Shown: positions 2,646 to 22,783 of the stretch, in pieces
How positions within the stretch are numbered: the stretch's first letter is position 1
Layout: every line of letters begins with the position of its first letter
From: Bacteroidia bacterium
Lineage (GTDB): Bacteria > Bacteroidota > Bacteroidia > NS11-12g > UBA9320
DNA length: 64,000 bases
Direction of reading: 5' to 3'
NCBI GenBank assembly: GCA_965216465.1
Contig: CBDCFW010000001.1
Span: 224,001-288,000 of the forward strand
Program-made: the position numbers and the translations under genes
The notes under the pieces: model-generated
What the model was told of the DNA's origin: nothing
Database searches by the model: none
Seen by the model: the letters and a program-made list of their open reading frames with translations, nothing else

Positions 2646-3625
2646 TAAGCTATTACTTGGTTATAAACAGACAGCACATTCGCAATTTCTTGCTCAAGAG
2701 AATAGCTATAAACCTCTTGTCTATAATCGTTTATTCGATCACGCTCAAAGTTGCTAATAGCCTGAACAGCTACTGATTTAAAGGCCAGTTCAGACAAGTC
2801 TTTAGCGATATAGCAACCTTCCAAGTGCCCAATCCTTTCTTGTGTATCTCCAACTGGAGTTGATACTACTGCAAGGTTGCAAGCCAATGCTTCCTTAACA
2901 ACATTAGGCGAACCCTCTTGTAATGAGGTTTGAAACAAGAAATCGGAGGCGGTCATGTACTCAAAAACTTCTTTTGGAGTTTTACCCCAAACCTGAACAA
3001 ATCGAATTTCTGGATGATCAAGAGCCAATTCGTTCACAACATTTTGAGCCATAATAAATCGTTTACCAACATTTTTAGTGTTCCCGACAAAAAGAATAAC
3101 AAGCTCATCTTTTCTAAATCCCAGTTTAGTACGAATCTCGTCTTTCGATTTTTTAGGAACATATTGAATGTCGCAACCCGATGGAATGACCGCTTCAACT
3201 TTCTTAGACTTGAAAAACGATTTTATAGCCTTTGACACATAGATATTGGCATCGCTCCTTTTGGCTGCAAAATGACTCACCCATTGAACCATTTTAGAAA
3301 TGTAATTATGCTTCCCTTTGGAGTTAAGCACTCCATATACATCTGAACCTCTGAAACTTACAACAATCTTTGATTGAACAAAAAATGGTATTACAGCTAT
3401 GGTTTGCCCCCAATTTATATGAATAAGATCGTAATTATTTTCTTTAATCAGTCGTTTAATTTCCTTGCGTGCCTTAAGGTAATTAGACCACTTTCTCTTT
3501 GCGACAAAATGATATAGTTCTATATCAATTTCTTTCTGTAATCCATAAAACAACCGCTCAATAAACGGTGACACATAGGGCCGTTCAATGGTCGGATAAT
3601 ATGGTGTAACAAAAAGTACTTTCAC
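2645..3625 (-). CDS. Glycosyltransferase family 4
   Basis: FRGSDV, EGSPNVVKEALAC (EX7E motif), STPVGD. Confidence 0.88.
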   Translation of the reverse strand: MKVLFVTPYYPTIERPYVSPFIERLFYGLQKEIDIELYHFVAKRKWSNYLKARKEIKRLIKENNYDLIHINWGQTIAVIPFFVQSKIVVSFRGSDVYGVLNSKGKHNYISKMVQWVSHFAAKRSDANIYVSKAIKSFFKSKKVEAVIPSGCDIQYVPKKSKDEIRTKLGFRKDELVILFVGNTKNVGKRFIMAQNVVNELALDHPEIRFVQVWGKTPKEVFEYMTASDFLFQTSLQEGSPNVVKEALACNLAVVSTPVGDTQERIGHLEGCYIAKDLSELAFKSVAVQAISNFERDRINDYRQEVYSYSLEQEIANVLSVYNQVIA

Positions 3626-4758
3626 TAGCTTAGTACAGCCTTAAGTGCTTCTTGAATTCTTTGACGTTCAATGTCAGTAAGATTAGAACCGCTTGGTAAA
3701 CACAATCCAATTTCGAATAGTTTATCAGAAGTACCATTTACATAGCTCGGAAAGTCTTTAAAAACAGGTTGTTGATGCATTGGTTTCCATAACGGTCTAC
3801 ATTCTATATTCTCTTCCATTAAGGCTAGGCGAATGGTTTCCCGGCTAATATTCCTCTCGTTTGGCTTTACAAGAATGCAGGTAAGCCAGTGATTGGAGAA
3901 GAATTTAATATCCGGTTCTTTGAAAACCTCGATGAATGGGTAATCTTTAAAGAAGGATTGATACCATTCGTTCATAGCTCTTCTTTTGTCAATCCATTGA
4001 TCAAGAACTTCAAGCTGCCCACGACCAATTCCTGCTGCAATATTGCTCATGCGGTAATTAAACCCAATTTCTTCATGCTGGTAATGCGGTGTATTCTCTC
4101 GGGCTTGTGTAGCTAAGAATGTTGCTTTCTTCACATAATCTTCATTGCGCGACACAAGAGCCCCTCCGCCAGAGGTTGTAATAATTTTATTACCATTAAA
4201 TGAATAGATACCTATCTCGCTAAAGGTCCCCATTTTTTGACCATTATATTTCGCACCTAGTGCTTCAGCGGCATCCTCAATAATCGGAATATTGTGTTTA
4301 GCACAAATGGCCAACAGCTCCTCCATTTTGGCTGGCATACCGTAAAGATGAACCAATACACATGCTTTAGGTTTTTTGCCTTTTGCGATTCTATCTTGAA
4401 TTGCCTCTTCTAAAGTTTCAGGACTCATATTCCAGGTACTGGGTTCTGAATCGACAAAAACTGGAATTGCCTTTTGATAACGAATTGCATTCGCAGAAGC
4501 CGAAAACGTGAAGCTAGAGCAAAGTACCTCATCATCTTGTTCTACTCCTAGAAGTATTAATGCTAAATGCAAAGCTGCTGTTCCCGAACTTAACACCGTA
4601 CAATGCTCGATGTTGTTATACGTTGCTAGCTCTTTTTCCAGACCGTTCACATTTGGTCCTAAAGGAGCAATCCAATTGGTATCAAACGCTTCTTGAATGT
4701 ATGCAATTTCGTTTCCTCCCATATGAGGAGAAGAAAGATATATTCTATCCTTAGTCAT
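3625..4758 (-). CDS. DegT/DnrJ PLP sugar aminotransferase, PglE/EpsN-like
   Basis: IYLSSPHM, SSGTAALHLAL, EDAAEALG, SFNGNKIITTSGGG; next to PglD- and PglC-like genes. Confidence 0.9.
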   Translation of the reverse strand: MTKDRIYLSSPHMGGNEIAYIQEAFDTNWIAPLGPNVNGLEKELATYNNIEHCTVLSSGTAALHLALILLGVEQDDEVLCSSFTFSASANAIRYQKAIPVFVDSEPSTWNMSPETLEEAIQDRIAKGKKPKACVLVHLYGMPAKMEELLAICAKHNIPIIEDAAEALGAKYNGQKMGTFSEIGIYSFNGNKIITTSGGGALVSRNEDYVKKATFLATQARENTPHYQHEEIGFNYRMSNIAAGIGRGQLEVLDQWIDKRRAMNEWYQSFFKDYPFIEVFKEPDIKFFSNHWLTCILVKPNERNISRETIRLALMEENIECRPLWKPMHQQPVFKDFPSYVNGTSDKLFEIGLCLPSGSNLTDIERQRIQEALKAVLS

Positions 4759-5341
4759 TATTAGTTCTTATAATTCTTGCAGGGTTTCCTACAGCAATGG
4801 AGTTATCTGGAATTGGCTTTGTCACCACCGATCCTGCTCCAATTTTACACCACTTTCCAATCGTTATTCCTGGAATAATTGTAGATCCAGCTCCTACAAT
4901 TGTACCTTCTCCGACTGTAACAGAACCACATAAGGTTACTTGGGGTGCAATGTGGCAGTAATCTCCAACTTCACAATCGTGATCTACGCTTGCTCCGGTA
5001 TTAATTATTGTGTGGCGTCCAATTGTGCTATCTGCTTGAACTATACTTCCATGTAAAAGCTGACTTCCATCCCCTATTTTCACAGACTCGTCTACTTCAG
5101 CCGTAATGGCCTGCACAATTCCAAATTGATGAGTGATTTTCTCAACAACTATTTTTCGGATTTTATTGTCTCCTATTGCCACAACAACCTTCTCGTCAGC
5201 ATGAAGCTCACTGCTATACTTGGTTATTGGTTTGTTCCGAAAAGTATCTCCTTTCGGATTGTCGTCGAAGAATGCTATTACGTTTTGCTCAAGTGCTGAG
5301 GCAACAACTTTTCCGTGTCCACTTGCTCCAAATACTATCAT
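4751..5341 (-). CDS. Hexapeptide-repeat sugar N-acetyltransferase, PglD/NeuD-like
   Basis: GASGHGKVV, AIGDN, INTGASVDHDC, GNPAR. Confidence 0.9.
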   Translation of the reverse strand: MIVFGASGHGKVVASALEQNVIAFFDDNPKGDTFRNKPITKYSSELHADEKVVVAIGDNKIRKIVVEKITHQFGIVQAITAEVDESVKIGDGSQLLHGSIVQADSTIGRHTIINTGASVDHDCEVGDYCHIAPQVTLCGSVTVGEGTIVGAGSTIIPGITIGKWCKIGAGSVVTKPIPDNSIAVGNPARIIRTNND

Positions 5342-5952
5342 TGATTTCCTTTAAATTTCTCCATAGTGGCAGAAGAATCGCTTGATATACCTTCAATCTT
5401 CAGCACTTTGAAAATGGTCATAAATATTATTTTAATGTCTAACACCAATGAATGGTTTTCGACGTACCATACATCTAGCCTAAACTTTGTAGTCCAGTCT
5501 AAGCTGTTTCGTCCATTCACTTGTGCCCAACCCGTAATTCCAGGTCTTACATTATGCCGAGCTCGTTGCTCGTCATTGTAAAGTGGCAAGTATTCCATTA
5601 ATAATGGTCTTGGACCAATTAGCGACATGTCACCTTTTATCACATTTATCAACTGTGGAATTTCATCTAAAGAAAGCTTTCGCACCCAACTCCCTATGGT
5701 GGTTAAACGCTCTGCATCACTAAGAAGCTCACCATGCTCATCCTTTCTATCGTTCATAGTCTTGAACTTAATTAAGGTAAATGGTACCTCATTTCTTCCT
5801 GGTCTAACCTGGGTAAAGAAAACGCTTCCTTGATTCGCAACAAACAAGAAAATAATGGTGATCAGAAATATCGGCAAAAGCAGTGTAAAGCCTAGTAAGG
5901 CAATAACAAAGTCAATACATCTCTTTAGAAAATTTCTATACAGCAATCTCAC
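5338..5952 (-). CDS. Initiating polyprenol-phosphate phosphoglycosyltransferase, PglC-like (Bac_transf)
   Basis: KRCID, KFKTM, RKLSLDEIPQLINV, GPRPLL, RPGITGWAQVNGR. Confidence 0.92.
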   Translation of the reverse strand: MRLLYRNFLKRCIDFVIALLGFTLLLPIFLITIIFLFVANQGSVFFTQVRPGRNEVPFTLIKFKTMNDRKDEHGELLSDAERLTTIGSWVRKLSLDEIPQLINVIKGDMSLIGPRPLLMEYLPLYNDEQRARHNVRPGITGWAQVNGRNSLDWTTKFRLDVWYVENHSLVLDIKIIFMTIFKVLKIEGISSDSSATMEKFKGNQ

Positions 5953-7132: not shown

Positions 7133-8265
7133 TCTTTCGTGTTAAGTGCCATTTGATATTCTTTTAGCAAGGCTTCCCACACAACTCCTTGATCAAAATT
7201 AGCTATAATATCTTGTTGAGCTTTGGCTGCCAACTCTTGTCTTAGAACTTTGTCTTTATGCAGAATGGTCATTTTGTCGACCAATTCGGTTTCATTTTTT
7301 GGCTCAACCAACAAGCCGTTGATCCAATCTTTCACAATTTCATTGCATCCATTAATATCTGAAAGTATCATAGCCTTACCCATCGCCCCTGCTTGTAGCG
7401 GAACATTTGGAAACCCTTCACGATAACTCGGAAAAACTAAAATATCCGAAAGTGCTATATAAGGTCTAACATCCTGCTGGTAGCCAACAGAGATGATATC
7501 GGTATTCAATTTTATTTTCTGGTGTGTTTCTCTAGGAAGTGGATCAAGGTCTTCTTCAAAGTGGCCTACTAAGATTAATTTTGTTTTGGGAAGTGCACGG
7601 TTTACTTTTTCGAAGCTATTGATCAGCTCGACGATTCCTTTATCTGTAACTATTCTTCCTATAAAGATAAAAACTGTCTCATCGGTAATCCCAAATTCCT
7701 TCTTCTGCCAATCAATTACTTCCTTTGAAACCGCATTCTCATTAAAGGTTTTGAGATTAATGCCGTTGGTTGTTCCATTTCCTACAACTTTGAGCTTTTT
7801 GCTGTAATAAAGCTTCTTAGCAATGTAGTCTTTCAATCCAAAGCTGTTGCAATATACATGTGTTGAGCAGCTATAGGTAAACAGCTCAATCAGTTTGAGC
7901 ATGTTACGAAAGATTTTATTCTTTTCCATTAGCGGAAGCCCACCAACGGTATGCATTCTAATTTTAACACCACAAATTTTTGCTGCCAACATTCCTATCA
8001 AGCCTGCCTTCGGAGTATGTGAGTGTACAATATCCGGTTTGAGGTCTTTTATAATTTTAATGAGCTCAAGCAAAGATTTAAAATCTTGAAGTGGACGAAG
8101 CTTTCTATTGAAAGATTCTACTTCATTGTGGTTTGGATGATTAAAAAAGCCATGAGAAGCAGTGTGCATATCAAAATCGTTCGATTCCATGTATGCAATC
8201 TGACCGGTTAGCAGCTTTTCAAGCGATAGACTAATCGTTGTTATTCTCAGTATTTTGGGCTTCAA
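7129..8265 (-). CDS. Glycosyltransferase family 4, CapM/PglA-like
   Basis: HSHTPKAG, GRIVTDKGI, FPSYREGFPNV, DINGCNEI. Confidence 0.9.
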   Translation of the reverse strand: MKPKILRITTISLSLEKLLTGQIAYMESNDFDMHTASHGFFNHPNHNEVESFNRKLRPLQDFKSLLELIKIIKDLKPDIVHSHTPKAGLIGMLAAKICGVKIRMHTVGGLPLMEKNKIFRNMLKLIELFTYSCSTHVYCNSFGLKDYIAKKLYYSKKLKVVGNGTTNGINLKTFNENAVSKEVIDWQKKEFGITDETVFIFIGRIVTDKGIVELINSFEKVNRALPKTKLILVGHFEEDLDPLPRETHQKIKLNTDIISVGYQQDVRPYIALSDILVFPSYREGFPNVPLQAGAMGKAMILSDINGCNEIVKDWINGLLVEPKNETELVDKMTILHKDKVLRQELAAKAQQDIIANFDQGVVWEALLKEYQMALNTKE

Positions 8266-9400
8266 TTTGTTGGTAGTTTAAGTAACGTTGCCGTAGTTTA
8301 AGCGTGTAAATTATCGGAAACATAGCTAATAAAATCCAAAAAGGTGTAAAACGTAACCCCATATGCGTAAGGCTATAAAGAATTACGGGAAGCACATATA
8401 AGCTGGTACGCCACCTCAATCCTTTAAAAAGACTAAAAAAGAACAAGAGAAACAACGTGAATCCAGGTATCCCATAACTAAAGATAAGATTACCAAAAGA
8501 CGAGTGCATTTCGTGTTTAGTGATGTACGTATCAAATCTTTCATACATTCCTTCCCCAGAACCCAGTATCAAGAAATAGGGGTGATTGTTAATGCGGTCG
8601 TATCCTCTGTACTCCCACTCAGTAATATTGGCTTTTTTCGACCCATCATCCACTCGTTTAAGAACATAGGCTGTTTGACTAACCCCTTTTTCATTCTTCA
8701 CAACGAAGTAATAGCTTATTGAAAAGATGATTATGACCGCTATCAATCCATTGCCTTTAAGTATCTGGCTATCAAATAAATAAAATACGGACAAGAAAAG
8801 AATACCTCCTACTGCTGCCTTTGATGCACTAATTAAGGTCATCAACAAGCAGGCTAAAAATACGACTACAAAGAATACTAGATTAATTTTATCAAGCTTG
8901 TTGAGAATTACAAATATGCTAAGCATCAGCAGTGCATAGTATCCCAGCTGATTAGGTGTTGTAAAAAAGAAAGACGGTCTTAAGTCATCAAAGTTTTCCG
9001 AGCCAAAAAGAAGGTAATATCCTATTTGAATGACCACCGAAAGTACAATACCATATTGAGTAAACTTAACAAATTTCTTGATATTGATATTTGCCAAACC
9101 AATGGCATAGATAAGCACCAAGGCATTGTATAAGTAAAAGATTGTCGATATAAGTGGTAGTCCTTTATAATTCCCAAAGTAGATGATGAACAATACTAAG
9201 TTAGCAAGTAATGTATAACCCAAGAACATTTGCAATGAGCCTTTTTTGAATGTTGCTCTCTTGAAACCTGCTCTCAAAACAGAACCAGAAAGTATCATTA
9301 CACTAATCATGAGATAGTCGCTTACCTGAGGCGTTCCACTAGGAAACCAGTAGAATGGATTCAGAATTAAAAAAAGTGCCCACAAATAATAACGCATCAC
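8231..9400 (-). CDS. Putative Wzy polysaccharide polymerase (module B)
   Basis: Polytopic membrane protein with PNQLG, SASKA, ILGSGEG and HSSFGNLIFSYGIPG (Wzy_C-like); lies among glycosyltransferases. Confidence 0.7.
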   Translation of the reverse strand: MMRYYLWALFLILNPFYWFPSGTPQVSDYLMISVMILSGSVLRAGFKRATFKKGSLQMFLGYTLLANLVLFIIYFGNYKGLPLISTIFYLYNALVLIYAIGLANINIKKFVKFTQYGIVLSVVIQIGYYLLFGSENFDDLRPSFFFTTPNQLGYYALLMLSIFVILNKLDKINLVFFVVVFLACLLMTLISASKAAVGGILFLSVFYLFDSQILKGNGLIAVIIIFSISYYFVVKNEKGVSQTAYVLKRVDDGSKKANITEWEYRGYDRINNHPYFLILGSGEGMYERFDTYITKHEMHSSFGNLIFSYGIPGFTLFLLFFFSLFKGLRWRTSLYVLPVILYSLTHMGLRFTPFWILLAMFPIIYTLKLRQRYLNYQQIEAQNTENNND

Positions 9401-10560
9401 ATTTTGCTAATAAATTCGGCTACAACATCGTCACTCTCACCAGAGTTTGATGCAAAATTTTCAAGGTAGTTTCGATAGTTTCTAAAATGATAATGTTCTC
9501 CGCTTAAGAACTCATCGAGTTGACCAGCTATTTCTGGTTCGTAAATATTTAATCCGTAAGCAACACTGTCTTGTACGTAGTCTCCAAGATAGTCGTGATT
9601 CTTAAGCTTAACCACACCCAACTTTTTACCATGTATAATCACATTAATACCCACGGTAGAAGCAAACACAATTCCAGCATCTACAGTATTGATGATAATA
9701 TCAATATCTGAGCTACTATCGTACACTTTCACATCTTTTAAATCATTGTTTTTCAGTATCTTTCGAAGATATGAAGCTGATTCTCTAGGATGATTTTTGA
9801 AGATAACCTCAAGCTTTCTTTTATGTCTCTTGCCGTATTCAACAAGCGTTCTGGCGAGATCGATATACAAGGCAAATTTTTCTTCTGTAGTCGTAAACTT
9901 TTGGTCGTCAATGGGGTTTCCAAATATGGCAACTCGACGTATTTTATCGGGGATAGAATCTAATGATTGCTGTATGTAAAGCGACTTGTCGTAACCCGGA
10001 CTTCCTAGGGCTACAACTTCTGTGTTTGATGCAACCACCTGATCAAAATAGGTTTTAGATTTTCGACCCCAAGCAATTAGCACATCTGCTCCAGAACCTC
10101 CATATTTTTTCGTTTCTTCAACGGGCAAAGGAAAGCGGATTCCTTCTTGCATTAGGATGGTCTTAATCTTTCTTTGTTTAAGATATCGTAAGATGTAGTT
10201 CCCTGGATAGGCCGTGTCATTAAGCATAACAGCATGTGTCGTATTCTTAAACCATTTTTTCAATTTAGGTTTAAGTACAACAGTCCAAAATCCCCAACGC
10301 AGAATCCCTGAAATCATTACGGTTAATTTACTTGGTTTTTGACCTTCTTGTGGTTTTGCCTTAGGTACATTGATATTGAACTTTTTATAGGGAAGACCAA
10401 CATCATTTAAGATTTGTTCTGGAGTGTTAAACTTTCTTACCTCACAAAGTGAAACAAACTTAGTTGGGACACCTCTTTTTACAAGCTTTCTTGCAACTGG
10501 AAGCGTAATTAGAACATGGTGATTCGGATTAGTTATGATAAAATCAACTTGCTTCATCAA
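9397..10560 (-). CDS. Putative GT-B transferase for a CMP/CDP-activated donor (ulosonic acid transferase-like)
   Basis: MQEG, AWG, GSPGYD, KNHPRE and STVG motifs recall sialyl/Kdo and glycerophosphate transferases. Confidence 0.5.
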   Translation of the reverse strand: MMKQVDFIITNPNHHVLITLPVARKLVKRGVPTKFVSLCEVRKFNTPEQILNDVGLPYKKFNINVPKAKPQEGQKPSKLTVMISGILRWGFWTVVLKPKLKKWFKNTTHAVMLNDTAYPGNYILRYLKQRKIKTILMQEGIRFPLPVEETKKYGGSGADVLIAWGRKSKTYFDQVVASNTEVVALGSPGYDKSLYIQQSLDSIPDKIRRVAIFGNPIDDQKFTTTEEKFALYIDLARTLVEYGKRHKRKLEVIFKNHPRESASYLRKILKNNDLKDVKVYDSSSDIDIIINTVDAGIVFASTVGINVIIHGKKLGVVKLKNHDYLGDYVQDSVAYGLNIYEPEIAGQLDEFLSGEHYHFRNYRNYLENFASNSGESDDVVAEFISKM

Positions 10561-11647
10561 TTAATTTAAAATAAGATTCTACACCTTCATTCACTTGATA
10601 TTTCTTCACGCTTTTCTTAGCTGCTTCTCCATACTTTTCTCTTAATGCGCTATCTGAAGCTAAGCTCAGCATTGCACCTGCTAAAACATTCGAGTCTCCT
10701 ACAGGAACTAAGATTCCGTTCTTTTCATGCTCAATGATTTCGTTTGGACCCGTTGGGCAATCTGTCGAGATGCATGCAACACCCGCTGCCATTGCTTGAA
10801 TGAGCACTCCAGGCATCCCTTCATGCAATGAGCTTAGAACAAATACATCAGCGTGTTTTAGGTATTTATAGGGATTTGGATCAAAGCCCACTAGTTGCAC
10901 ATTGTTCTTTAGGTTTAGAGCCTCAACTAACTGTTCAACTTTTGATTTTAGGGGACCTTTACCGAGAATAATCAATTCTGCTTCTTGAGTTTCAGTAAGC
11001 TTTTTAAATGCATGCAATAAGTTGGGATAATCTTTTTGTTTAACAAATCGACCTATAGCTATGAATTGCAGTTTAGCTTCTGATTTTTTAATCTCCAATG
11101 GCTCATCAAGCTGATTATAAAAGTGATTATCAATCAACGGATTATTCACCACAAATACCCTGTTGCTCTCAAGCTTAAATCTCGCAATTAGCTGATCTTT
11201 AATTCCGTGAGACACTGCTGTAACTAGTGAAGCTCGCTTATAGAGCCTTTTCTTGAGCCCCAAGAGCATTGACTTTTTAAAACTGGAGGAATAGGTTCTA
11301 TCTAAAGAGTTTCGTTCCGATACTATGGTGGTTCCTTTAAACCTCATGAATTGGGTTGCAAGCATCATTGGAATTGACATTCCACCACAAGTGCTAAATA
11401 CAACATCAAAATTCTCTTTTCTCAATAATCGTTGAATTGGCCTTATGCAAAACCACAGCGACGAAGCTCCCAGATTGTATACCGCAACATTTTTGTTCAA
11501 GTCACTTTGAAATTCACCATTGAGATGCATCAACGCCAAAGAGACATCGTACTTTTCTTTATCGTAATTGTTCAGCAGATTCAAGGTTACTCGATCAGCA
11601 CCGCCGTAACCCAAGCTTGGCCGTATGAACAATATTTTACGCTTCAT
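10544..11647 (-). CDS. Glycosyltransferase family 4, PglJ-like
   Basis: GGADRV, GRFVKQKDY, SSLHEGMPGVLIQAMA, DCPTGPNEII; start moved to MKRKILF. Confidence 0.88.
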   Translation of the reverse strand: MKRKILFIRPSLGYGGADRVTLNLLNNYDKEKYDVSLALMHLNGEFQSDLNKNVAVYNLGASSLWFCIRPIQRLLRKENFDVVFSTCGGMSIPMMLATQFMRFKGTTIVSERNSLDRTYSSSFKKSMLLGLKKRLYKRASLVTAVSHGIKDQLIARFKLESNRVFVVNNPLIDNHFYNQLDEPLEIKKSEAKLQFIAIGRFVKQKDYPNLLHAFKKLTETQEAELIILGKGPLKSKVEQLVEALNLKNNVQLVGFDPNPYKYLKHADVFVLSSLHEGMPGVLIQAMAAGVACISTDCPTGPNEIIEHEKNGILVPVGDSNVLAGAMLSLASDSALREKYGEAAKKSVKKYQVNEGVESYFKLIDEAS

Positions 11648-12263
11648 TAAGATAAAATACGTTAATTGACTTTTGTGCAATTAACTTATGTATTGGAAGG
11701 TCTCTTTGGTTAATCAATACATCTAACTTTTTTCGTCCCTGAATCACCAAAACCACTTGATTGGCATCTACAATTGGATGATAATTTAAGCTTAATCTAT
11801 GTGTTCCATCGCTAGGGTGCACGCAGCTAAACACATTAGTATCAAAAGATTGCTCAGGAAATACCGATGCAAAATGGCCATCCTCTCCCATGCCTAGCAA
11901 AACTAAATCAAGCTGATTTGGCAATTTCGTTGCATAAGCTTCAACACTTTCTTCAATCGTACATCCTTCCGTTTGAAAGGGATAAAATTTAACCTGGTCT
12001 TTTCTCAACCACAATTTATACGATTCAGCAAAATTATTGCGGCGGTCGCGTTGAGGAACAAATCGTTCATCCACCCAAAACACTGACAATTCTGACTTCG
12101 ATGAACCAATTGGGTTGTCTCCAAGATATTCAAAAATGGGCACCGGTGTAGAGCCACCACTAATAGCAACTGAAGTTTCGCGCTGTTGATTAGCAAGATT
12201 TAATAATAGGCCATGCACAGCCATATTGATGTCGTCTTGATCTATAAAAGTGGTAATCCTCAA
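11637..12263 (-). CDS. pgl: 6-phosphogluconolactonase-like protein
   Basis: AISGGSTP, FWVDERFV, LGMGEDGHFASVFP; probable TTG start at 12263. Confidence 0.85.
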   Translation of the reverse strand: MRITTFIDQDDINMAVHGLLLNLANQQRETSVAISGGSTPVPIFEYLGDNPIGSSKSELSVFWVDERFVPQRDRRNNFAESYKLWLRKDQVKFYPFQTEGCTIEESVEAYATKLPNQLDLVLLGMGEDGHFASVFPEQSFDTNVFSCVHPSDGTHRLSLNYHPIVDANQVVLVIQGRKKLDVLINQRDLPIHKLIAQKSINVFYLNEA

Positions 12264-12264
12264 A

Positions 12265-12912
12265 TTACTTGAAGTAGTTGGTGATGACATCTTCTAGGTT
12301 TTCAATTGCAGATTCACCTTCGTCAATCCAAAAGTCGTGAAGCTCTGGTGAGTTTACAGCCTGAAAGTTTACCTGTGTTTTTTGAGCTGCATAAAAGTCG
12401 GTAGTTGCATCGCCTAAAAACAATGCTTCATCCGCTTTAATTTCAAATCGATGTAGACAATCGTTAACTATTGACTCCTTACTTTTTGGAGAACCCCAAA
12501 CTTCTTCAAAGTACGTATTTAGTTCTCGCTTTTCAACGATGGTATGAAGTTCGCGGTAAGGAGTTCCTGAAGCAACGACACAACGTATGCCGCTGGTTTT
12601 TAAATAGTTGAGAAGTTCTAAAGCACCTGGAATAAAGCTAGTCTTCAGGACTTCATTTAATACTATTTCGCTAAAACGATTTCCTAAGTTCTCTGACTCT
12701 TCAGCGGTAATTTCTTTTCCAAGCAGTTCACGATAAAACCAATCAAACTTTTCATATCTTGAAATTCCTTGGTTGTCAATATGATATTGTGTTATGGCTT
12801 CAAGATGTTCTGGATAGTCCTCAAATACTTGCGGGAATGCCTTTGTTTTGATATTGGCCGAATCAAGGACCACACCATCAAAATCGAAAAATACCAGTTT
12901 AATTTTGCTCAC
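12265..12912 (-). CDS. HAD-superfamily phosphatase
   Basis: FDFDGVVLDS motif I, VASG, K, LGDATTD motif IV. Confidence 0.88.
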   Translation of the reverse strand: MSKIKLVFFDFDGVVLDSANIKTKAFPQVFEDYPEHLEAITQYHIDNQGISRYEKFDWFYRELLGKEITAEESENLGNRFSEIVLNEVLKTSFIPGALELLNYLKTSGIRCVVASGTPYRELHTIVEKRELNTYFEEVWGSPKSKESIVNDCLHRFEIKADEALFLGDATTDFYAAQKTQVNFQAVNSPELHDFWIDEGESAIENLEDVITNYFK

Positions 12913-13792
12913 CAGCTTCTTTTTCTTTTCTCATTTCTTCTAATAACTGAATGATACCTTGACCCATGTCAACATATTCGTTCGTTACTAGCTTTTTACC
13001 AATAGAAGGAAGATAAGTGTAAGGCGTGATGTTGTAATGACCATTCTTGCCGCTTGTAGTTTCCTCGTAGTTAATGTTCACCTTTTTATCTAGAATCTCC
13101 TCAAACATCTTGTAGAGTTCAGAAACCTCTAAGCGATCATTTCCTGTTAAGACATAATGTTTATTCTCATACTGCTTGCCCAAAATTTGAGCGCTTAGCT
13201 TCGCGGCATCGTATACGTGGATGTATTCCCGTTTGTCAGAAGGAGCTCCATCGTGATTGATTCTTTCATTGCTAATAAAATTGTTTAAGAGTCTATAAAC
13301 CCCATTGGTTTCGTCTGTACGAGGACCATATAAACTACCGTATCTCAAAACGGTATAATTCAAATCGTATTTTCGGTGAAATTCCTCGATGTAGGCCTCA
13401 CAAGCCTGCTTGCTACAACGATAAAACCCTCCTTGAGCACTAAAAACATAAACCGACGATCCAAAAACAAACCGCTTTATGTTGTTTTGAACACATCCAT
13501 TCAAAAGCACCGCCGTTCCTTTAATATTGATCTCAATAGAGTCTATAGGTCTTTCTTTTGCTTCATTTAAGTCTGCTAAGGCTGCCAAATGATATACGTA
13601 ATCAAACCCTTTTAGTGCTTCATTAACAAAATCTTGATTGCAAACATCGCCTTGAACAAACGACTGGTCGTGGCGTATATAAGCCGATTCATTGAGGTCT
13701 AAAATGGTTACTTCATGTCCTTCATCCGACAATGCATCTGCAATGTGACTTCCGAGAAACCCCGCTCCTCCTGTAACTATAATCTTTGCCAT
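12899..13792 (-). CDS. NAD-dependent epimerase/dehydratase (extended SDR)
   Basis: TGGAGFLG, HLAA, SSVYV, YRCSK (YxxxK), RYGSLYGPR. Confidence 0.88.
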   Translation of the reverse strand: MAKIIVTGGAGFLGSHIADALSDEGHEVTILDLNESAYIRHDQSFVQGDVCNQDFVNEALKGFDYVYHLAALADLNEAKERPIDSIEINIKGTAVLLNGCVQNNIKRFVFGSSVYVFSAQGGFYRCSKQACEAYIEEFHRKYDLNYTVLRYGSLYGPRTDETNGVYRLLNNFISNERINHDGAPSDKREYIHVYDAAKLSAQILGKQYENKHYVLTGNDRLEVSELYKMFEEILDKKVNINYEETTSGKNGHYNITPYTYLPSIGKKLVTNEYVDMGQGIIQLLEEMRKEKEAGEQN

Positions 13793-14712
13793 TAATTAAA
13801 AAATGCTATAATTTTCTTAGCGCACTCCATCTCCATGTTGATACGCACCTCCTTAGCATACGAGCCAATATGTGGGGTTAAAAGCACTCGATCTTGCTCA
13901 ATTAACTCTCCGCTATAAGGTTCAGCTTCAAATGTATCGATGTATGCCTTTGCCTGTTCATTTTCTTTAAGGAAAGAAATCAACTCGTTTTCGTCAATGA
14001 GTCCCCCCCTGCTTGTATTTACAATCATGGCATCAGATTTCAGCAATGCGAACTCCGATTTCCCAATCATATGTTTATTGCTTGGTGTAAACGGAACATG
14101 AAGAGAAACGACATCTGCATTCTTCAATATTTCACCCTTGCTTGCTTTTCGAATTCCATTACTATTGGCAAACTCTTCGTCCCAAAACAAGTCTGTAGCT
14201 ATAATTTCAGTTTCAAATGGTTTAAGCAATTCGACGAGTCTCTTGGCAACTTTTCCTAGCCCAATGAGTCCAATTTTCTTACCCTTTAACAACGATCCCA
14301 TTGGCTTCTTCCAAATGTTTTGCTTCATGCTCGCATGAGCAAAACTTATATTTCGATGCAGGTCTAGAATTCCACCTAAACACAGTTCTGCGACACCATC
14401 AACATGAGCAATAGGAGTGTTTTCTACTGGAATGTTTAAGTTTTTTGCAGCCTCTAAGTCAACACTATCCATTCCTGTTCCTAGCCTACAGATATACCTC
14501 AACTGAGGATGCTGATTAAAAGTCTCATTATCAATTGGTTCTGTTCCGGCAATTAAGCCATCTATACCGCTAAGTAATGCTAAAGATTGCTCCTTGCTAA
14601 GGGTTTTTCCATGCGGATTAAGCTTAACTTCAAAGCCCGCATCTTTAAGCATTTGTAAAGGTTTAGGATTAACCTTTCCAAATGAGCTTGTTGAGATAAG
14701 TATCTTTTTCAT
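13792..14712 (-). CDS. D-isomer-specific 2-hydroxyacid dehydrogenase (PGDH-like, no ACT domain)
   Basis: GLIGLGKVA, SLHVP, NTSRGGLIDE, DTFEAEP, TPHIGS. Confidence 0.9.
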   Translation of the reverse strand: MKKILISTSSFGKVNPKPLQMLKDAGFEVKLNPHGKTLSKEQSLALLSGIDGLIAGTEPIDNETFNQHPQLRYICRLGTGMDSVDLEAAKNLNIPVENTPIAHVDGVAELCLGGILDLHRNISFAHASMKQNIWKKPMGSLLKGKKIGLIGLGKVAKRLVELLKPFETEIIATDLFWDEEFANSNGIRKASKGEILKNADVVSLHVPFTPSNKHMIGKSEFALLKSDAMIVNTSRGGLIDENELISFLKENEQAKAYIDTFEAEPYSGELIEQDRVLLTPHIGSYAKEVRINMEMECAKKIIAFFN

Positions 14713-15461
14713 TACAGTCCACTTTCAGATGATTGTTCAAGTAATTTCGTAATTAGAGCTGGGTTATTAACCCACCATTCGCTAATTCCAATATCAAAAT
14801 GAGTATGTACATCTCTTCCTGTTACCCAGGTTCTAATAATAGGAGCTGAGCGTTTGCCCATCCACCACCAGGGATTAACTCCATCTTCGCTATATACGGT
14901 TTGATGTCTAAACGCCCACACACCTTGGTCGTAATAATATGCTTTCTTGTACGATTGGCGTTCCGTTGAAACTTTTCTATTCTTATCGCCATAGGCTTCC
15001 AAAATCCCTTCTTCGTTAATTTCCATTGCTCGATTTGGATGGTCGTCTTGGGCCTCCCAAACGGTCATGCAACTATCTAGGCTCGGATCGTTATCTAATT
15101 TGGCTAAGCATTTATCAATAATTTCTCCGTTGATGTATACCGTATTTCCTAAAAGTAAAACGACATTCTGAATTTCAGGATGTTTTTCTTTAACCCACTC
15201 CACGGCATGTTTAATTACAATTCCGTGATTTACAGTATCGCCGCTTAACTCTTCTGGTCTTGGAATTATAGTGGCTCCTAGCTCCTTTGAGGCATTGGCA
15301 ATTAGGTCTCCATCTGTTGATACAAAGATTTTATCAATCTTCTTGGCATCCATTGATGCTTGAATTGGATAGTGAATCATAGGCTTTCCTGAAACCATGA
15401 AAACATTTTTGTTAATTATCGATTTACTTCCTGCGCGGGCAGTGATAATTGCTACATTCAT
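14712..15461 (-). CDS. Acylneuraminate/ulosonate cytidylyltransferase family protein
   Basis: ITARAGSKSIINKN, VSTD, RPEELSGD. Confidence 0.85.
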   Translation of the reverse strand: MNVAIITARAGSKSIINKNVFMVSGKPMIHYPIQASMDAKKIDKIFVSTDGDLIANASKELGATIIPRPEELSGDTVNHGIVIKHAVEWVKEKHPEIQNVVLLLGNTVYINGEIIDKCLAKLDNDPSLDSCMTVWEAQDDHPNRAMEINEEGILEAYGDKNRKVSTERQSYKKAYYYDQGVWAFRHQTVYSEDGVNPWWWMGKRSAPIIRTWVTGRDVHTHFDIGISEWWVNNPALITKLLEQSSESGL

Positions 15462-16573
15462 TTATTTATAAATTCTAATATTTTTTTTGCTCGTATATCC
15501 CAAGTGTATTTAGAAACTAAATCTTCATAGGCTTGGGTGCTTAGTTTGTCTCTTTGGTTTTTGTTCTCATTTAGAAGGAGAATTGCTTTTTCCCACTCTT
15601 CTACGTTGTCGCAGGTTGCAAACATGCAATTGTCAGCATTCAATACTTCATGAAGTACCGGAAGATCGGAAGCAATAATTGCTTTTTTAGCCTCCATATA
15701 TTCAAATATTTTAAGTGGCGACATATAGCTAGAGGTATTGTTACCGCTTGCAATAGTTACATTTTCTTGATAGGGAGCCAGTAGTATATCGCATTTTTTA
15801 CGAGCGATTACAGCTTTGCTGGGACTAACAAATCCATGGAAATGCAGATTTTCTTTCGTAACCGAGTCTGGATAGTAATCCAGTCTTTCCATTTGGGCTA
15901 CGGTACCTCCAATGATATGAAAATCGATTTGCGGTAATCTCTCACTCAATTGCACTATTAATTCCAGGCCCCTACCCTTCGAAATTGTTCCAACATAGCC
16001 CACTTGAGTTCTTTCTGCTTTACCAGGCCAAGTGTAGCTATTCAATTCTTCTAGAGTGGTATTGTAAACCGTTGCACCGTCGTGAACCGCTAATATTTTC
16101 TCACCAGTTATGAAATCTTGTTCACTTTTTAGTCTTTGCTTTAATGCATTCGACATGGTGACCAAGCCCAGAAAATTGGAGTGCGTGCAAAGCAGTGTAA
16201 AAACCTTCTTTCTCATACCATCCATTGCAGTGAATGGGTTGTGAGTTTCGTATGCGACCTTATATCCAAGTCTAGTAGCTAAATAGCAAGAAAATAATGA
16301 TCTGCCAAAAACAATATCTGGATTAAATTGCCTTAAAATTCTGCGAGCCCTAAAGGCATGTAACCACAAACCTATTTTGGGCAATGGTTCATTTGAAAAC
16401 TCTATTCTAAATGAAGATGTTCCGTACGCCTTGCTTACATCTCCCCAATTCCCTCTGAAGGCCGTTAACATAACATCGTGATTCTTTGAGAGAGCATTGC
16501 AAATTTGCATAACGTGCACACTGTTTGCCTTCTTTGACGGAATAGTTGAGTCTGATAAGTAAGCAATTCTCAT
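15458..16573 (-). CDS. Glycosyltransferase family 4
   Basis: ANSVHVMQ, YVGTISKGRG, SPLKIFEYM, SDLP; start moved to MRIAYL. Confidence 0.88.
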   Translation of the reverse strand: MRIAYLSDSTIPSKKANSVHVMQICNALSKNHDVMLTAFRGNWGDVSKAYGTSSFRIEFSNEPLPKIGLWLHAFRARRILRQFNPDIVFGRSLFSCYLATRLGYKVAYETHNPFTAMDGMRKKVFTLLCTHSNFLGLVTMSNALKQRLKSEQDFITGEKILAVHDGATVYNTTLEELNSYTWPGKAERTQVGYVGTISKGRGLELIVQLSERLPQIDFHIIGGTVAQMERLDYYPDSVTKENLHFHGFVSPSKAVIARKKCDILLAPYQENVTIASGNNTSSYMSPLKIFEYMEAKKAIIASDLPVLHEVLNADNCMFATCDNVEEWEKAILLLNENKNQRDKLSTQAYEDLVSKYTWDIRAKKILEFINK

Positions 16574-16574
16574 G

Positions 16575-17447
16575 TTACTTGAAGCGGTATAGCTGAGCAA
16601 TTGGTTTCCAAAATAAATTCTTTAAGAAAGAATGCTTAGTTGCTCGTTTATATCCATTTTGCTCTAAGTCTTGACCCGCAATGGTTTCAAATTTGCTAAT
16701 CTCTGAAGCTTCAAGTTTCTCCTTCCATTTGTTAATTGCATTGGCAATTGGTCGCTTGTCAATATTTTGGTGAAGCTCTTTTCCATAACGTTCCGGCACC
16801 TGATAATTCATCACGCTTTCACCTGGCTGCAATCCTATAAATGACTCGAGTTTCTTAAAGGCTTCATCTGTGTTTTGAATCAACTCTTCATACTTTAACA
16901 GCATAGTATTGTCTGGATGCTCCGCTTTAATCTTCTGTGCTAACCTCGCATACTGTTTCCACTGCATTGCTGAACGAATGGGATTGGTTTCAAAGGCTTT
17001 TTGTGTTACCGAATAAGTGCTATTCTTTTGAGAGCTAAAAATGGCCCTTCCATCTCGAACAAGTATGATAAACTTTGCGTTTGGAAAGTGAGCCTTCAAG
17101 TCTTGATAAACGTGGATGTAGTTTCCTTTTTTAATTCCGATAGTTGCAGCATTGCTTGTCTTAGTATTCTTATATAGCTCACACAATTCATTTAAAAATC
17201 CGCCTTTCGATTGCATGGCATACCCTAGCTCCTCAATATCGCTGTCAGCAATTTGCCAGTCTTTCATCTTCTTATCTTGGAGAATTAAATCTACCCCCCT
17301 ATCAGCTGTCCACGCATGATGATCAAGAAGCACACTTTGCATAATGTTTGACTCAGGCGGAATAATTACGGGATACCGCTCGCATAATTCTTTTGCTAAA
17401 AATGTAGAGCCAGAACGAGATAAATAAAAAATAAAAAATGCAGGCAT
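16575..17447 (-). CDS. Sulfotransferase
   Basis: 5'-PSB loop SRSGSTFL, 3'-PB motif LVRDGRAIFSS, KYEELI. Confidence 0.85.
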   Translation of the reverse strand: MPAFFIFYLSRSGSTFLAKELCERYPVIIPPESNIMQSVLLDHHAWTADRGVDLILQDKKMKDWQIADSDIEELGYAMQSKGGFLNELCELYKNTKTSNAATIGIKKGNYIHVYQDLKAHFPNAKFIILVRDGRAIFSSQKNSTYSVTQKAFETNPIRSAMQWKQYARLAQKIKAEHPDNTMLLKYEELIQNTDEAFKKLESFIGLQPGESVMNYQVPERYGKELHQNIDKRPIANAINKWKEKLEASEISKFETIAGQDLEQNGYKRATKHSFLKNLFWKPIAQLYRFK

Positions 17448-20023: not shown

Positions 20024-20923
20024 CTAGGCTATTTTACGAAGTCCTTTCAGAATCTTCTCCCTCAGTAAGAATAGATTATACGAAACATTAAACTTGATAT
20101 TTGTCCAGCTCATGCCTAAGTTTCCTTCTTCATATCCTAACAGTTTAATATGTTTTTTCAGCTTGTAATTCGCTACGGGTATTAATTTCGAGTCGGCATT
20201 TTTCCATCGGTATACCGCAGAAGAATCAAACAACTTAGAAACATCTCCAAAGGATGAATTGTTGGTGTACTTCTTGCCGTCTCTTATTATGAGCTGTTCC
20301 AAATCTGGGGTAATGTTTGTTCCCAAAAACTCAGTAAGTTCTTTGCAGATTTCATCCTTTTGTAGGATTAAATCCTCGTACTTTAGAAAGTAGAAGTTCG
20401 AATATTGGTTAGAAAGTTCAATGGCTAGATTTAAGCTTTCAGTCATATCGCGTATGTATCTGCGAATTTCAAACTTCGCAAATCTGTTTTCTGATGAAAG
20501 GAGTACATCTCTAGGATCTCTATAAATGTAAATTACTTTATGGTTATTAATCAGTAATTGTTCTAAGTAATAAAGTTCTTCTGTTTTTTTAATACCTACG
20601 AGGTTAACATTCTCCGATTCATCGAGCTTTGATAGCTCATGTAGACATTGAACAAATAACTCGTTTACCGTATTAAACTTGCCTGCGTTGATGTTTAACT
20701 CGATATCAAAATTAAAACACTCTGCCTCCAAGCTACTGACTAAGATATTCTTTTCTTTAGGGCCTAGTGGCTTATTCATGTCTCTGATATCCAAGTCTTT
20801 ACCGTTATTAAATATCGACCTTAAAAAATCAGAATACACCACAACGTGATGCTGACTGTTGAGCAGGTTGCATAGAAATGTGGTTCCTGACCTCATTTTC
20901 CCGGTTATAAAAACACTATTCAT
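20024..20923 (-). CDS. Sulfotransferase
   Basis: ITGKMRSGTTFL, YRDPRDVLLS, KYEDLI. Confidence 0.88.
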   Translation of the reverse strand: MNSVFITGKMRSGTTFLCNLLNSQHHVVVYSDFLRSIFNNGKDLDIRDMNKPLGPKEKNILVSSLEAECFNFDIELNINAGKFNTVNELFVQCLHELSKLDESENVNLVGIKKTEELYYLEQLLINNHKVIYIYRDPRDVLLSSENRFAKFEIRRYIRDMTESLNLAIELSNQYSNFYFLKYEDLILQKDEICKELTEFLGTNITPDLEQLIIRDGKKYTNNSSFGDVSKLFDSSAVYRWKNADSKLIPVANYKLKKHIKLLGYEEGNLGMSWTNIKFNVSYNLFLLREKILKGLRKIA

Positions 20924-21722
20924 TTCCTGAATATACCTTGTCTTTTAAACTTCTAATTTGTTCTAAATTGTTTTTATAAAAATCACTGATCTTCTTAACA
21001 ATTTCGCTGTTTAAACTTGCTTGCTGACGCATACTATTTATGTCGAGTAACGCTGTTTCTTGCAAGAGCAGTTTACGTACATCTGCATACGATGGTATTT
21101 CAATTTTATCGAATCGATGAAAGAGTTGTGAGATCAATTCAAAATCTTCTGGATAATCAGATGTGATTCTAATATTTTCCAGTTTTAGATGTTCAGGTGT
21201 TTCAACTCTTAACACATTAAAAACATCTGGCTGATTAATTAAATGGCCCCAGATTTCCGTATCTATTTCTTCCTTTATTTGACAAACAACTTTTAATGCC
21301 CTTGTCTTCAATCCATATACCGCACAACCAATTGGCAATCCTTCGATATAGGCAAAGTCAGCCTGGTTCTCAATCAGTTCTGTTTTTAGCTGATGTGCCA
21401 TGTCAATTGAAAACAATGGGTTTTCTCCGGTTATATTGATTACGTAGTCTAAGCTATGGGTCTCAGCAGCATCTTTTAACCTTGTTAGCACATCTCCTTC
21501 ACTTCCTCTAAAACATTGAATACCTGCTTTTTTCGCAATCACTTCTAATGGATTATCCTGATAGAAGGTTGACGTACAGAGTATTACATTTTCTGAAGGA
21601 ATTACTTGCTTTGCTCGATCAATCACACGTTCAACCATCGTTTTGCCGTTAAGGCCTAACAATAGCTTGTAGGGCAATCTTGATGATTTCAAACGTGCAG
21701 TAATCAGAAATCCTATTTTCAT
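20916..21722 (-). CDS. SpsF-like cytidylyltransferase
   Basis: ARLKSSRLPYK, FRGSEGDVLTR, ITGENP, TSDYPED. Confidence 0.85.
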   Translation of the reverse strand: MKIGFLITARLKSSRLPYKLLLGLNGKTMVERVIDRAKQVIPSENVILCTSTFYQDNPLEVIAKKAGIQCFRGSEGDVLTRLKDAAETHSLDYVINITGENPLFSIDMAHQLKTELIENQADFAYIEGLPIGCAVYGLKTRALKVVCQIKEEIDTEIWGHLINQPDVFNVLRVETPEHLKLENIRITSDYPEDFELISQLFHRFDKIEIPSYADVRKLLLQETALLDINSMRQQASLNSEIVKKISDFYKNNLEQIRSLKDKVYSGNE

Positions 21723-22777
21723 TTTGTATTTTTAAATTGAGAAATATCTGCGATAGTGAATTTGTACTCGACTTTTCCGAAGTCTATGATTTCATCCTTT
21801 TCAATTCTGTGCTTAGTCTTAAGCCCTAAAATATCTTGTAATTGAAGCTGTTTTAATGTCGATGAATCATTGGTACGTTTAAAGGCTATGTGGTCTAGCG
21901 TTAGCAATTCACCTTGCTCAATAACTTTTGAAGCTACAATTGCCTTTTTCATTGGTCCTGTGTCTCCATACTTCTTTTCCGCAGCTGAAAGTTCAAGCGA
22001 CCCGTTTCCAAGTACCGTAAATGCTGTATTCTGAAGTTCTTTAATTTTCTTCATGGTGTCGATTGACACTGCACTTTGGGCATCAATTCTTTTATCGCCA
22101 TATGCATGCGTAAAATGCTTCTCTAAAACATTCACACCAACCGCTGTGGCCATCACGCTCACAAATGCATTATTGTCATCTTCGGGGTCGGTATGGTCTG
22201 CATAGCCAATGGGGTAATTGAATAAAGATTGATATTTCTTCAATCGTTCTAAGTTCACATCAGCATAGTCGGTTGGGTAGTTTTGAAATCCATACATTAA
22301 GAAAATGTCGGTTTTGTTTCTTTTCTCCAAGAAGTCGATGGCGTAAAATATTTCATCCAAAGAAGAACCACCAACGCCAAGAATGACAGTTCCATTAAAC
22401 TTTGAAGCTTCTTCGAGCAGGAAGTAGTCATTTAAACCTGTTGCGTGCAGTTCAATAGCCTTGCACGGAATGTTCTTATTCAAAATCCAACGCAGCGAGT
22501 TTACATCGTTGCAGAGGTAAATAACATCAATATTTTTACTCGAGGTATATTCCGAAATCTCAGTCCATTGACCTTCATCTAAACACCACTTAGCCAAATC
22601 GTTTATTGCAGCATGTTCAGCAATCATGTATTCATTGATATCCATCAACAAGTGAAATTTAACAGCATTCAACTTGAGACTTTCTGCATGATCAACTAAC
22701 TGCTTTAAAAAGGGCACATCCCCTTCATGATGAAATGCTGTTTCTCCTATGAGATAAGGTATGTTACTGGGAATCAT
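21719..22777 (-). CDS. Atypical NeuB/SpsE-family nonulosonic acid synthase with SAF domain
   Basis: IGETAFHHEGD, QNYPT, GYADHT, LEKHFT, C-terminal KKAIVA SAF domain. Confidence 0.82.
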   Translation of the reverse strand: MIPSNIPYLIGETAFHHEGDVPFLKQLVDHAESLKLNAVKFHLLMDINEYMIAEHAAINDLAKWCLDEGQWTEISEYTSSKNIDVIYLCNDVNSLRWILNKNIPCKAIELHATGLNDYFLLEEASKFNGTVILGVGGSSLDEIFYAIDFLEKRNKTDIFLMYGFQNYPTDYADVNLERLKKYQSLFNYPIGYADHTDPEDDNNAFVSVMATAVGVNVLEKHFTHAYGDKRIDAQSAVSIDTMKKIKELQNTAFTVLGNGSLELSAAEKKYGDTGPMKKAIVASKVIEQGELLTLDHIAFKRTNDSSTLKQLQLQDILGLKTKHRIEKDEIIDFGKVEYKFTIADISQFKNTK

Positions 22778-22783
22778 ATTGTT

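Follow-up and report, generated by a model that had tools for sequence, protein, structure and literature searches.

In a 64,000-nucleotide stretch of the genome of a Bacteroidia bacterium (contig CBDCFW010000001.1, positions 224,001 to 288,000; hereafter ‘the window’), a minus-strand gene cassette encodes a cytidylyltransferase (CT), a D-2-hydroxyacid dehydrogenase (HADH), an extended short-chain dehydrogenase/reductase (SDR), a haloacid dehalogenase-type (HAD) phosphatase and a 6-phosphogluconolactonase-like protein (Pgl). We tentatively propose that this cassette encodes, without an aldolase, a self-contained oxidative pathway to a hex-2-ulosonic (2-keto-aldonic) acid activated with cytidine monophosphate (CMP). 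Family membership, synteny, distribution and the retention of Pgl residues were observed, and from these we infer all substrates and products. The cassette is probably a variant of the CMP-activated ulosonic acid pathways that follows a route we did not find described: in searches of open-access papers and preprints, judged by title and abstract opening, no account of such an aldolase-free pathway to a CMP-linked keto acid appeared. To our knowledge, all known CMP-activated acid sugars, namely 3-deoxy-D-manno-oct-2-ulosonic acid (Kdo), the sialic, pseudaminic (Pse) and legionaminic (Leg) acids and 2-keto-3-deoxy-nononic acid (Kdn), are built by the condensation of phosphoenolpyruvate (PEP) with an aldose. 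More doubtfully still, bacteria of at least six phyla may in this way make a new class of glycan residue, a six-carbon hex-2-ulosonic acid supplied as a CMP-sugar, from hexose-6-phosphate with five enzymes and no C-C bond-forming synthase; a bacterial SDR-type hexose-6-phosphate dehydrogenase would act first and would replace Zwf where there is no oxidative pentose-phosphate pathway.

The minus-strand open reading frames (ORFs) of the cassette coincide with those reported in a first-pass annotation of the window, whose overall interpretation is partly supported by our analysis. The family assignments that it gave to the five coupled genes were borne out by profile scores and motifs. In the direction of transcription, these genes are CT, of the NeuA/KdsB superfamily (14712-15461), a short HADH resembling 3-phosphoglycerate dehydrogenase (PGDH; 13792-14712), the NAD-type SDR with D32 (12899-13792), the HAD phosphatase of type IA (12265-12912) and Pgl (11637-12290). 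They are followed by a family 4 glycosyltransferase (GT4) that travels with the cassette (10544-11680) and by an HP-motif transferase of the GT-B type (9397-10560), which does lie two genes downstream of Pgl as had been annotated. The successive overlaps from CT through the GT-B gene are 1, 1, 14, 26, 44 and 17 bases. Given these overlaps of 1-44 bases, the genes are co-directional and probably translationally coupled. The whole window is one long minus-strand series of polysaccharide genes.

To describe conservation, one genome per species was scanned, which gave 162 encoding stretches, and the best 80 were kept as loci. A cassette part was called when tblastn gave E <= 1e-10 over at least half of the query, within 5 kb of CT and on the same strand. 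The resulting counts are lower bounds, because many loci are cut by contig ends. A single strand holds CT, HADH, SDR and HAD genes within a 5-kb span in 59 of the 80 loci; among the 53 loci from other species whose flanking sequence is 4 kb or longer on each side, 46 show this arrangement. The co-occurrence of these four core genes is far beyond chance. The conserved synteny expected from the first-pass annotation was therefore found for these four widespread genes. It did not extend to Pgl as a standing member, which a profile search found on the module strand in only 18 of the 80 loci, and HADH or SDR is also missing from some modules. Near CT, HADH was found in 65, SDR in 72 and HAD in 70 of the 80 loci. 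The seven exceptions among the 53 well-flanked loci lack HADH (L027, L029, L048 and L058), SDR (L026 and L074) or HAD (L006). By lineage, some modules of Myxococcota and Saprospiraceae have no HADH, and four Planctomycetota modules (L005, L026, L072 and L074) have no SDR in the stretch examined. The record titles place the carriers in at least six phyla (Bacteroidota, Planctomycetota, Chloroflexota, Acidobacteriota (Thermoanaerobaculia), Myxococcota and Gammaproteobacteria). Among them are cultured strains, namely Roseivirga echinicomitans KMM 6058, R. seohaensis SW-152, Neolewinella aquimaris DSM 105137 and Roseimaritima sediminicola JC651. Two gene orders occur according to lineage, CT-HADH-SDR-HAD or HADH-SDR-CT-HAD, and SDR directly follows HADH in 60 of 62 loci, even when CT is on the other side. 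One unpublished genome (G045, the genome of L070) contributes one row each to the Pgl and zwf tallies, the synteny counts and alignments A2-A4, and no conclusion depends on it.

By its sequence, CT is a distinct and highly conserved subfamily of the NeuA/KdsB superfamily. It matches the Pfam family CTP_transf_3 (PF02348) over residues 3-134 with 69.6 bits, against a cut-off of 22.6. It is below the NCBIfam equivalog cut-offs, the best score being that for PseF (TIGR03584, 106.3 against 205.7), with KdsB far lower (TIGR00466, 23.4 against 155.2), and it scores 33-47 bits with the KdsB PRK models, whose cut-offs are 193-281. The closest solved relative, the Vibrio cholerae CMP-N-acetylneuraminic acid synthetase 6ifd, aligns only over residues 3-185, with 80.6 bits. 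CT homologues are 63-90% identical across phyla among the best 120 of 642 matches, and mean column identity reaches 73% in a 16-sequence multi-phylum alignment; the motifs TARAGSK (residue 7), ERQSY (167) and NPWWWMG (196) are invariant. Since the known substrates of this enzyme family are 2-keto sugar acids, we read the product of the cassette as a CMP-activated 2-keto acid.

The two enzymes that would prepare such an acid were assigned in the same way. HADH matches the D-2-hydroxyacid dehydrogenase family (PF02826, 164 bits; PF00389, 73 bits) and is below the SerA equivalog cut-offs (TIGR01327 (PGDH), 210.5 against 454; PRK11790, 163.5 against 404). Across 29 orthologues, its residues R76, R235, E264 and H281 do not vary, and we take the last three to be the catalytic Arg-Glu-His triad of the family. 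The HAD protein belongs to type IA (TIGR01549, 42 against 23.3; PF13419, 72.4 bits; DFDGV at residue 10) and weakly matches models for beta-phosphoglucomutase, phosphoglycolate phosphatase and 6-phosphogluconate phosphatase. We propose that HADH may be a 6-phosphogluconate 2-dehydrogenase and HAD a 2-keto-6-phosphoaldonate phosphatase.

Gene content supports the independence of the cassette from PEP-condensing synthases, in line with the first-pass annotation, which had predicted that no such synthase would be needed. NeuB was found in the examined flanks of just 8 of the 80 loci, or 10 at a looser threshold, and where it lies near the cassette (L013 and L014), a separate CT adjoins it. When five carrier genomes were searched, a true NeuB was found only in G002 (325 bits); in the other four, the PF03102 matches are throughout 3-deoxy-D-arabino-heptulosonate 7-phosphate (DAHP) synthases according to NCBIfam. 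KdsA exceeds its cut-off in one of the five, the Thermoanaerobaculia genome G005. The Chloroflexota carriers G001, G003 and G004, which are metagenome-assembled genomes (MAGs) without known completeness, consequently have neither NeuB nor KdsA, and only DAHP synthases. We considered whether a KdsA might be hidden in the Chloroflexota, but the two TIM-barrel matches of 263 and 339 amino acids are DAHP synthases by NCBIfam. The 263-residue protein is a second paralogue found beside the 339-residue one (L081 = G001:C15, L083 = G003:C11, and G002:C24:68091-68798); it has no N-terminal extension and is unlinked to the cassette. An HpcH-type pyruvate aldolase was also rejected as a source of the acid, given that it is above the cut-off in 20 of 47 genomes, below it in 27 and absent from the genome of the window.

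The complementary distribution of Pgl lends further weight to the proposed link between the cassette and 6-phosphogluconate, which was also made in the first-pass annotation. The module Pgl scores 133 bits with PF01182 (cut-off 27) and 104.1 with TIGR01198, below the cut-off of 124.45, and it keeps the canonical invariant residues (GGxTP, DER, LGxGxDGH.ASxFP, R165 and K188). Pgl is an accessory, non-universal part of the cassette. None of the 15 genomes in which a Pgl is linked to the module (14 assigned from coordinates, and that of the window itself) has another PF01182 match of at least 100 bits, and 29 of the 33 genomes with none linked to the module have a Pgl elsewhere, with 161-244 bits (Fisher p = 3.5e-9, with the relatedness of the genomes ignored). 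In a 41-sequence tree, the module Pgls constitute two separate clades, one of Bacteroidota (support 99/98) and one of Myxococcota (94/89), the latter among canonical Pgls; they also occupy three operon positions, after HAD, before CT or after GT-B. These two clades and three positions indicate that Pgl was recruited to the module at least two times independently. We read the complementarity, the repeated recruitment and the retained canonical residues as evidence that the opening of a 6-phospholactone would be a step feeding the module, and that the module would need Pgl for it.

If this is true, then it introduces the question of where the lactone comes from. The genome of the window (G000) is 100% complete with 0.12% contamination, and a genome-wide search found neither zwf nor gnd, nor any edd/ilvD-family match or GntK-type gluconokinase; its sole PF01182 match is the module Pgl. 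The first-pass annotation had considered a housekeeping pgl beside zwf or gnd, and this genome holds neither these genes nor a second Pgl. Therefore, 6-phosphogluconolactone would not come from central metabolism, and the SDR, which had been annotated as a modifier of the CMP-sugar, is more likely to be the first enzyme. Because the genome shows no other source or sink, the module itself seems to produce 6-phosphogluconate as well as to consume it. The genome also appears to lack both the Entner-Doudoroff route and the oxidative pentose-phosphate pathway; IlvD may be missing as well.

The same pattern was observed among the other carriers. zwf is present in 2 of the 15 module-Pgl genomes, compared with 17 of the remaining 33. 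The SDR gene is in the module of all 28 zwf-less carriers, as well as in that of the zwf-less genome of the window, and each of the four SDR-less Planctomycetota modules comes from a genome that has zwf (Fisher p = 0.03, a value confounded by phylogeny). Most simply, the lactone would be made inside the module, by the SDR. This protein has the features of extended SDRs (PF01370, 146 bits; GGAGFLG at residue 8; YRCSK at residue 124) and reaches no equivalog cut-off (GalE TIGR01179, 87.1 against 262.3; Azf NF041293, 44 against 400). Its alignments to epimerases end near residue 250, the C-terminal stretch shared with epimerases being missing, and an invariant loop, GHYxxTPY (251-258), is modelled at low confidence. 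It is likely that the SDR is a hexose-6-phosphate 1-dehydrogenase and not a modifier of the CMP-sugar, the alternative being a nucleotide-sugar epimerase. Haloarchaeal Azf, an SDR-type glucose-6-phosphate dehydrogenase, is a precedent for this role.

In the pathway that we propose, the SDR would oxidize C1 of a hexose-6-phosphate, in the simplest case glucose-6-phosphate, to a 6-phospho-1,5-lactone, and the Pgl-like enzyme would open this lactone to 6-phosphogluconate; in modules that have no Pgl, a housekeeping Pgl or spontaneous hydrolysis could serve instead. The PGDH-like HADH would oxidize C2 and yield 2-keto-6-phosphogluconate, which is the oxidative direction of the KguD reaction (EC 1.1.1.43). 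The type IA HAD phosphatase would take off the 6-phosphate to leave a 2-ketoaldonate, and CT would turn the cyclic 2-keto acid into a CMP-glycoside, CMP-hex-2-ulosonate. The HP-motif GT-B would then transfer the acid to a repeat unit made by two GT4 enzymes and handled by a Wzy_C protein, which in the window would take place in the setting of a sulfated polysaccharide locus.

The genes for this last step accompany the cassette in many loci. Homologues of the GT4 enzyme (10544-11680; PF00534, 137 bits) were found in 51 of the 80 loci, those of the GT-B in 43 and those of the Wzy_C-type polymerase/ligase-like membrane protein in 34 (8231-9400, minus strand; PF04932, 24.1 bits, cut-off 31.7). The second GT4 (15458-16600, minus strand; PF00534, 43 bits), upstream of CT in the window, has homologues in 29, which immediately precede CT in Bacteroidota loci and adjoin the other GT4 in those of Chloroflexota. 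The GT-B carries the motifs Q-E-G (138-140), H-P (257-258) and S-T (301-302), of which HP and QEG are conserved; H257, within N-H-P-R-E at 256-260, is invariant in 24 homologues. Its profile matches are to PF05159 (20.1 bits, cut-off 20) and, weakly, to NF046086, the BFO_1060 family (33.9 bits, cut-off 200, residues 223-374). Based on the HP, QEG and ST motifs and a C-terminal half like that of the Tannerella forsythia nonulosonate transferases, we propose that the GT-B may be the transferase of the CMP-activated acid sugar. It shares with these transferases (BFO_1060/Tanf_01245) and with HP-motif sialyl and Kdo transferases the GT-B fold, HP and D/E-D/E-G-like motifs and the C-terminal half, in which the binding of CMP has been proposed for the T. 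forsythia enzymes (PMC5420450). However, the match to the BFO_1060 family is far below its cut-off, the N-terminal half is unrelated, and UDP-N-acetylglucosamine (UDP-GlcNAc) 2-epimerases, MurG and TarL rank as high or higher in fold searches.

Several observations weigh against the pathway to a CMP-hex-2-ulosonate. The proposed product is without chemical precedent, in that searches of open-access papers and preprints, judged by title and abstract opening, gave no report of a hex-2-ulosonic acid in bacterial glycans. HADH matches a probable 2-ketogluconate reductase (9m0t) with 112.7 bits and is nearer to the 3-phosphoglycerate dehydrogenases, with 173 bits for PDB 1wwk. It is also absent from the modules of L048 and L058, whose genomes hold no relative closer than 32% identity, and from the short contigs L047, L053 and L054, and L027 and L029 have just a 2-hydroxyacid dehydrogenase of 32-35% identity located 8-10 kb upstream. 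The nearest relatives of the SDR by sequence are UDP-hexose 4-epimerases (6dnt, 109.6 bits; 4zrm, 93.5 bits), which are also the best folds for its model (mean predicted local distance difference test (pLDDT) 87.1; 4zrm, TM 0.78), and the match to the Azf glucose-6-phosphate dehydrogenase is weak (44 bits) and covers only the Rossmann half (residues 3-156). Chloroflexota carriers that have zwf and pgl still have the SDR, and four genomes, the rest of the 33 without a module-linked Pgl, show no Pgl at all. The model of the GT-B (pLDDT 90.2) has a generic GT-B fold, and CMP-dependent enzymes were not singled out by the fold search, in which the Z scores were approximately 21.8 for UDP-GlcNAc 2-epimerase/NeuC, 20.1 for MurG, 19.6 for TarL, 18.4 for TagF and 17.3 for polysialyltransferase; the search returned no rows of the KpsC/WbbB type, which is not evidence either way. 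Finally, most carrier genomes are MAGs without known completeness.

The epimerase-like features of the SDR are accommodated by the order of steps given in the first-pass annotation, which we consider unlikely for the cassette as a whole but plausible where zwf exists. In this order, 6-phosphogluconate comes from Zwf and Pgl or from GntK, then HADH, HAD and CT lead to CMP-hex-2-ulosonate, and the SDR either acts on the CMP-sugar, by epimerization or some other change, or supplies the GT4 enzymes with a UDP-sugar. Besides the resemblance of the SDR to nucleotide diphosphate-hexose 4-epimerases in sequence and fold and its retention in zwf-positive Chloroflexota, the existence of Planctomycetota modules without an SDR agrees with such a role. 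So do the UDP-sugar genes (UDPG_MGDP_dh, MocA, DegT and acetyltransferase) that accompany many loci, and the synthesis of ADP-heptose, in which a phosphatase, a nucleotidyltransferase and an SDR epimerase act in that order, offers a precedent. However, the genome of the window and 12 other module-Pgl genomes are zwf-less, and this order would leave the module Pgl in them without a substrate. In addition, gntK, gnd and edd are also missing from the genome of the window, and the SDR has no C-terminal stretch that aligns with epimerases.

We also considered the possibility that the substrate is another acid, derived from 3-phosphoglycerate (hydroxypyruvate or glycerate) or from a shorter aldonate phosphate, which would receive a cytidylyl group before a GT-B resembling TagF and TarL attached it as a non-sugar or phospho-linked substituent. 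We regard this as improbable. The 3-phosphoglycerate dehydrogenases are indeed the nearest relatives of HADH, the HAD protein is similar to phosphoglycolate-type phosphatases, and the GT-B model aligns with TarL and TagF about as well as with other GT-B enzymes. Of the clusters given by an Atlas search, which are otherwise unnamed, one neighbour carries the name CDP-glycerol glycerophosphotransferase. Nevertheless, this possibility leaves the Pgl complementarity and the repeated recruitment of Pgl unexplained, and the phosphatase would strip the phosphate required for a CDP-linked donor. KdsB and NeuA activate the cyclic hemiketal of a 2-keto acid, which a 2-keto acid of three or four carbons is unable to form.

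Very improbable, finally, is an accessory role in a legionaminic-acid-type module at 20916-27817 of the window, with CT as a second CMP-nonulosonate synthetase and the oxidoreductases epimerizing or acylating a nonulosonate: the window has two NeuB-like genes and only one other CT nearby, and in Acinetobacter, EpaA, with a CTP_transf_3 domain, and the SDR EpaB convert Pse to 8ePse (PMC12053666) and the aci genes (AciA-E) adjoin lga genes (PMC5595891), but NeuB is absent from the examined flanks in 70-72 of the 80 loci and a true NeuB from four of the five carrier genomes searched, a separate CT adjoins NeuB where it is present, and HAD and Pgl would be unexplained. As a general explanation, nonulosonate epimerization or acylation (Aci/Ela/Epa-like, or N-glyceroyl) was rejected on the same NeuB distribution. 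The resemblance to these Acinetobacter systems lies in an extra CTP_transf_3 protein and NAD(P) oxidoreductases beside glycan genes; they differ in acting on Pse or Leg made by a NeuB-type enzyme, whereas the cassette, usually found without NeuB, includes a phosphatase and a lactonase.

The oxidative pathway to a CMP-hex-2-ulosonate can also be compared with characterized systems. It would share with the CMP-Kdo (KdsD, KdsA, KdsC and KdsB) and CMP-nonulosonate (NeuB/NeuA, PseI/PseF and LegI/LegF) pathways the HAD-type dephosphorylation of a keto-acid sugar, activation with cytidine triphosphate (CTP) by a PF02348 enzyme and CMP-dependent transfer. It differs in that the cassette contains no KdsA or NeuB, and several carrier genomes contain neither, in that CT is under the PseF and KdsB equivalog cut-offs, and in that its HAD is of type IA, whereas KdsC is of type IIIA. 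Because the keto group would arise by oxidation of a 2-hydroxy acid, the product would keep six carbons and the 3-hydroxyl group. The first steps resemble the oxidative pentose-phosphate entry (Zwf or Azf, with Pgl), in which hexose-6-phosphate is converted through a 6-phospholactone to 6-phosphogluconate, and the module Pgl has the canonical residues for it. Given that the carriers concerned have no Zwf or Gnd, these steps would feed glycan synthesis, and not the supply of NADPH or pentose.

KguD, of 2-ketogluconate utilization in Pseudomonas, and the GhrB/TkrA 2-ketoaldonate reductases belong to the D-2-hydroxyacid dehydrogenase superfamily, which interconverts 6-phosphogluconate and 2-keto-6-phosphogluconate. 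HADH is in the same superfamily and matches the structure 9m0t. In contrast to KguK and KguD, the reaction in the cassette would run in the oxidative direction and serve biosynthesis, no kinase is present, the dehydrogenase is coupled to a cytidylyltransferase, and HADH is nearer to the short 3-phosphoglycerate dehydrogenases. If the proposal is true, then the known building blocks of bacterial glycans would be extended by a further nucleotide sugar and a further kind of residue, and a function would be assigned to a highly conserved CT subfamily that is currently annotated as ‘CMP-sialic acid synthetase’. It would also explain the orphan Pgl genes of organisms without Zwf and Gnd, and would call for caution in predicting sialic-acid-like sugars from NeuA-like genes alone in marine, sludge and sediment metagenomes of organisms that make sulfated polymers.

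Elsewhere in the window, the legionaminic-acid-type module (20916-27817) contains a 4,6-dehydratase-like SDR, a formyltransferase, a NeuC-like 2-epimerase, a CBS+NTP_transferase protein, a second CT and a strong NeuB (342 bits); the second NeuB-like gene (21719-22777) is very divergent, with just 106.8 bits for PF03102. Three sulfotransferase genes (among 16575-17447, 20024-20923, 46064-46966, 31630-32391 and 58583-61379) lie within two consecutive polysaccharide loci delimited by Wza/Wzz. Genes for the supply of 3'-phosphoadenosine 5'-phosphosulfate (PAPS; CysN/CysD/CysC-like) and a CysQ-like phosphatase are in the same window. Because sulfotransferases are found inside the polysaccharide loci and PAPS-supply genes in the window, the polymers are probably sulfated. 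Sulfotransferases are also present in the related loci L033, L027, L029 and L004.

Many copies of the cassette are accompanied by genes for UDPG_MGDP_dh, MocA, DegT, a PglD-like acetyltransferase and a PglC-like initiating transferase (L018, L033 and L064, among others; window 3625-5952), which are typical of UDP-2,3-diacetamido-uronic acid or bacillosamine-type sugars. That these UDP-sugar genes travel with so many copies suggests a conserved repeat unit. The MocA oxidoreductase was considered as a substitute for HADH and rejected as such. It is usually located beside the GT4 and the HP-motif transferase, and since it travels with DegT, the acetyltransferase and UDPG_MGDP_dh, it is more likely a part of a UDP-diacetamido-uronic acid branch, although in L027 and L029 a substitution for HADH is possible.

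In Roseivirga echinicomitans (L089, G014:C7), whose genome has no zwf, a canonical Pgl gene and that of a GntK-type gluconokinase are two genes apart; the 293-amino-acid gene between them was examined as a possible SDR and was found not to be one. Pgl without zwf is likewise observed in several Roseivirga, Thermoanaerobaculia and Myxococcota carriers. Fusion of HADH and SDR was rejected as a general feature, because most of the long ORFs are out-of-frame run-ons and L057 alone is in-frame. In this Thermoanaerobaculia locus (L057:7464-10004), HADH (residues 249-547) and SDR (residues 557-846) are in a single frame, as a result of either a fusion or an assembly error. In Neolewinella aquimaris, an IS1-family transposase gene is located directly upstream of CT (L029:8994-9869). 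An IMG/VR contig classed as viral (L112, 3378-6693) encodes consecutively a 2-hydroxyacid dehydrogenase, an extended SDR (35% identical to that of the window) and a CT (49% identical); a Pfam search of the contig gives no HAD, and the row lies near methyltransferase genes and a DNA methylase gene.

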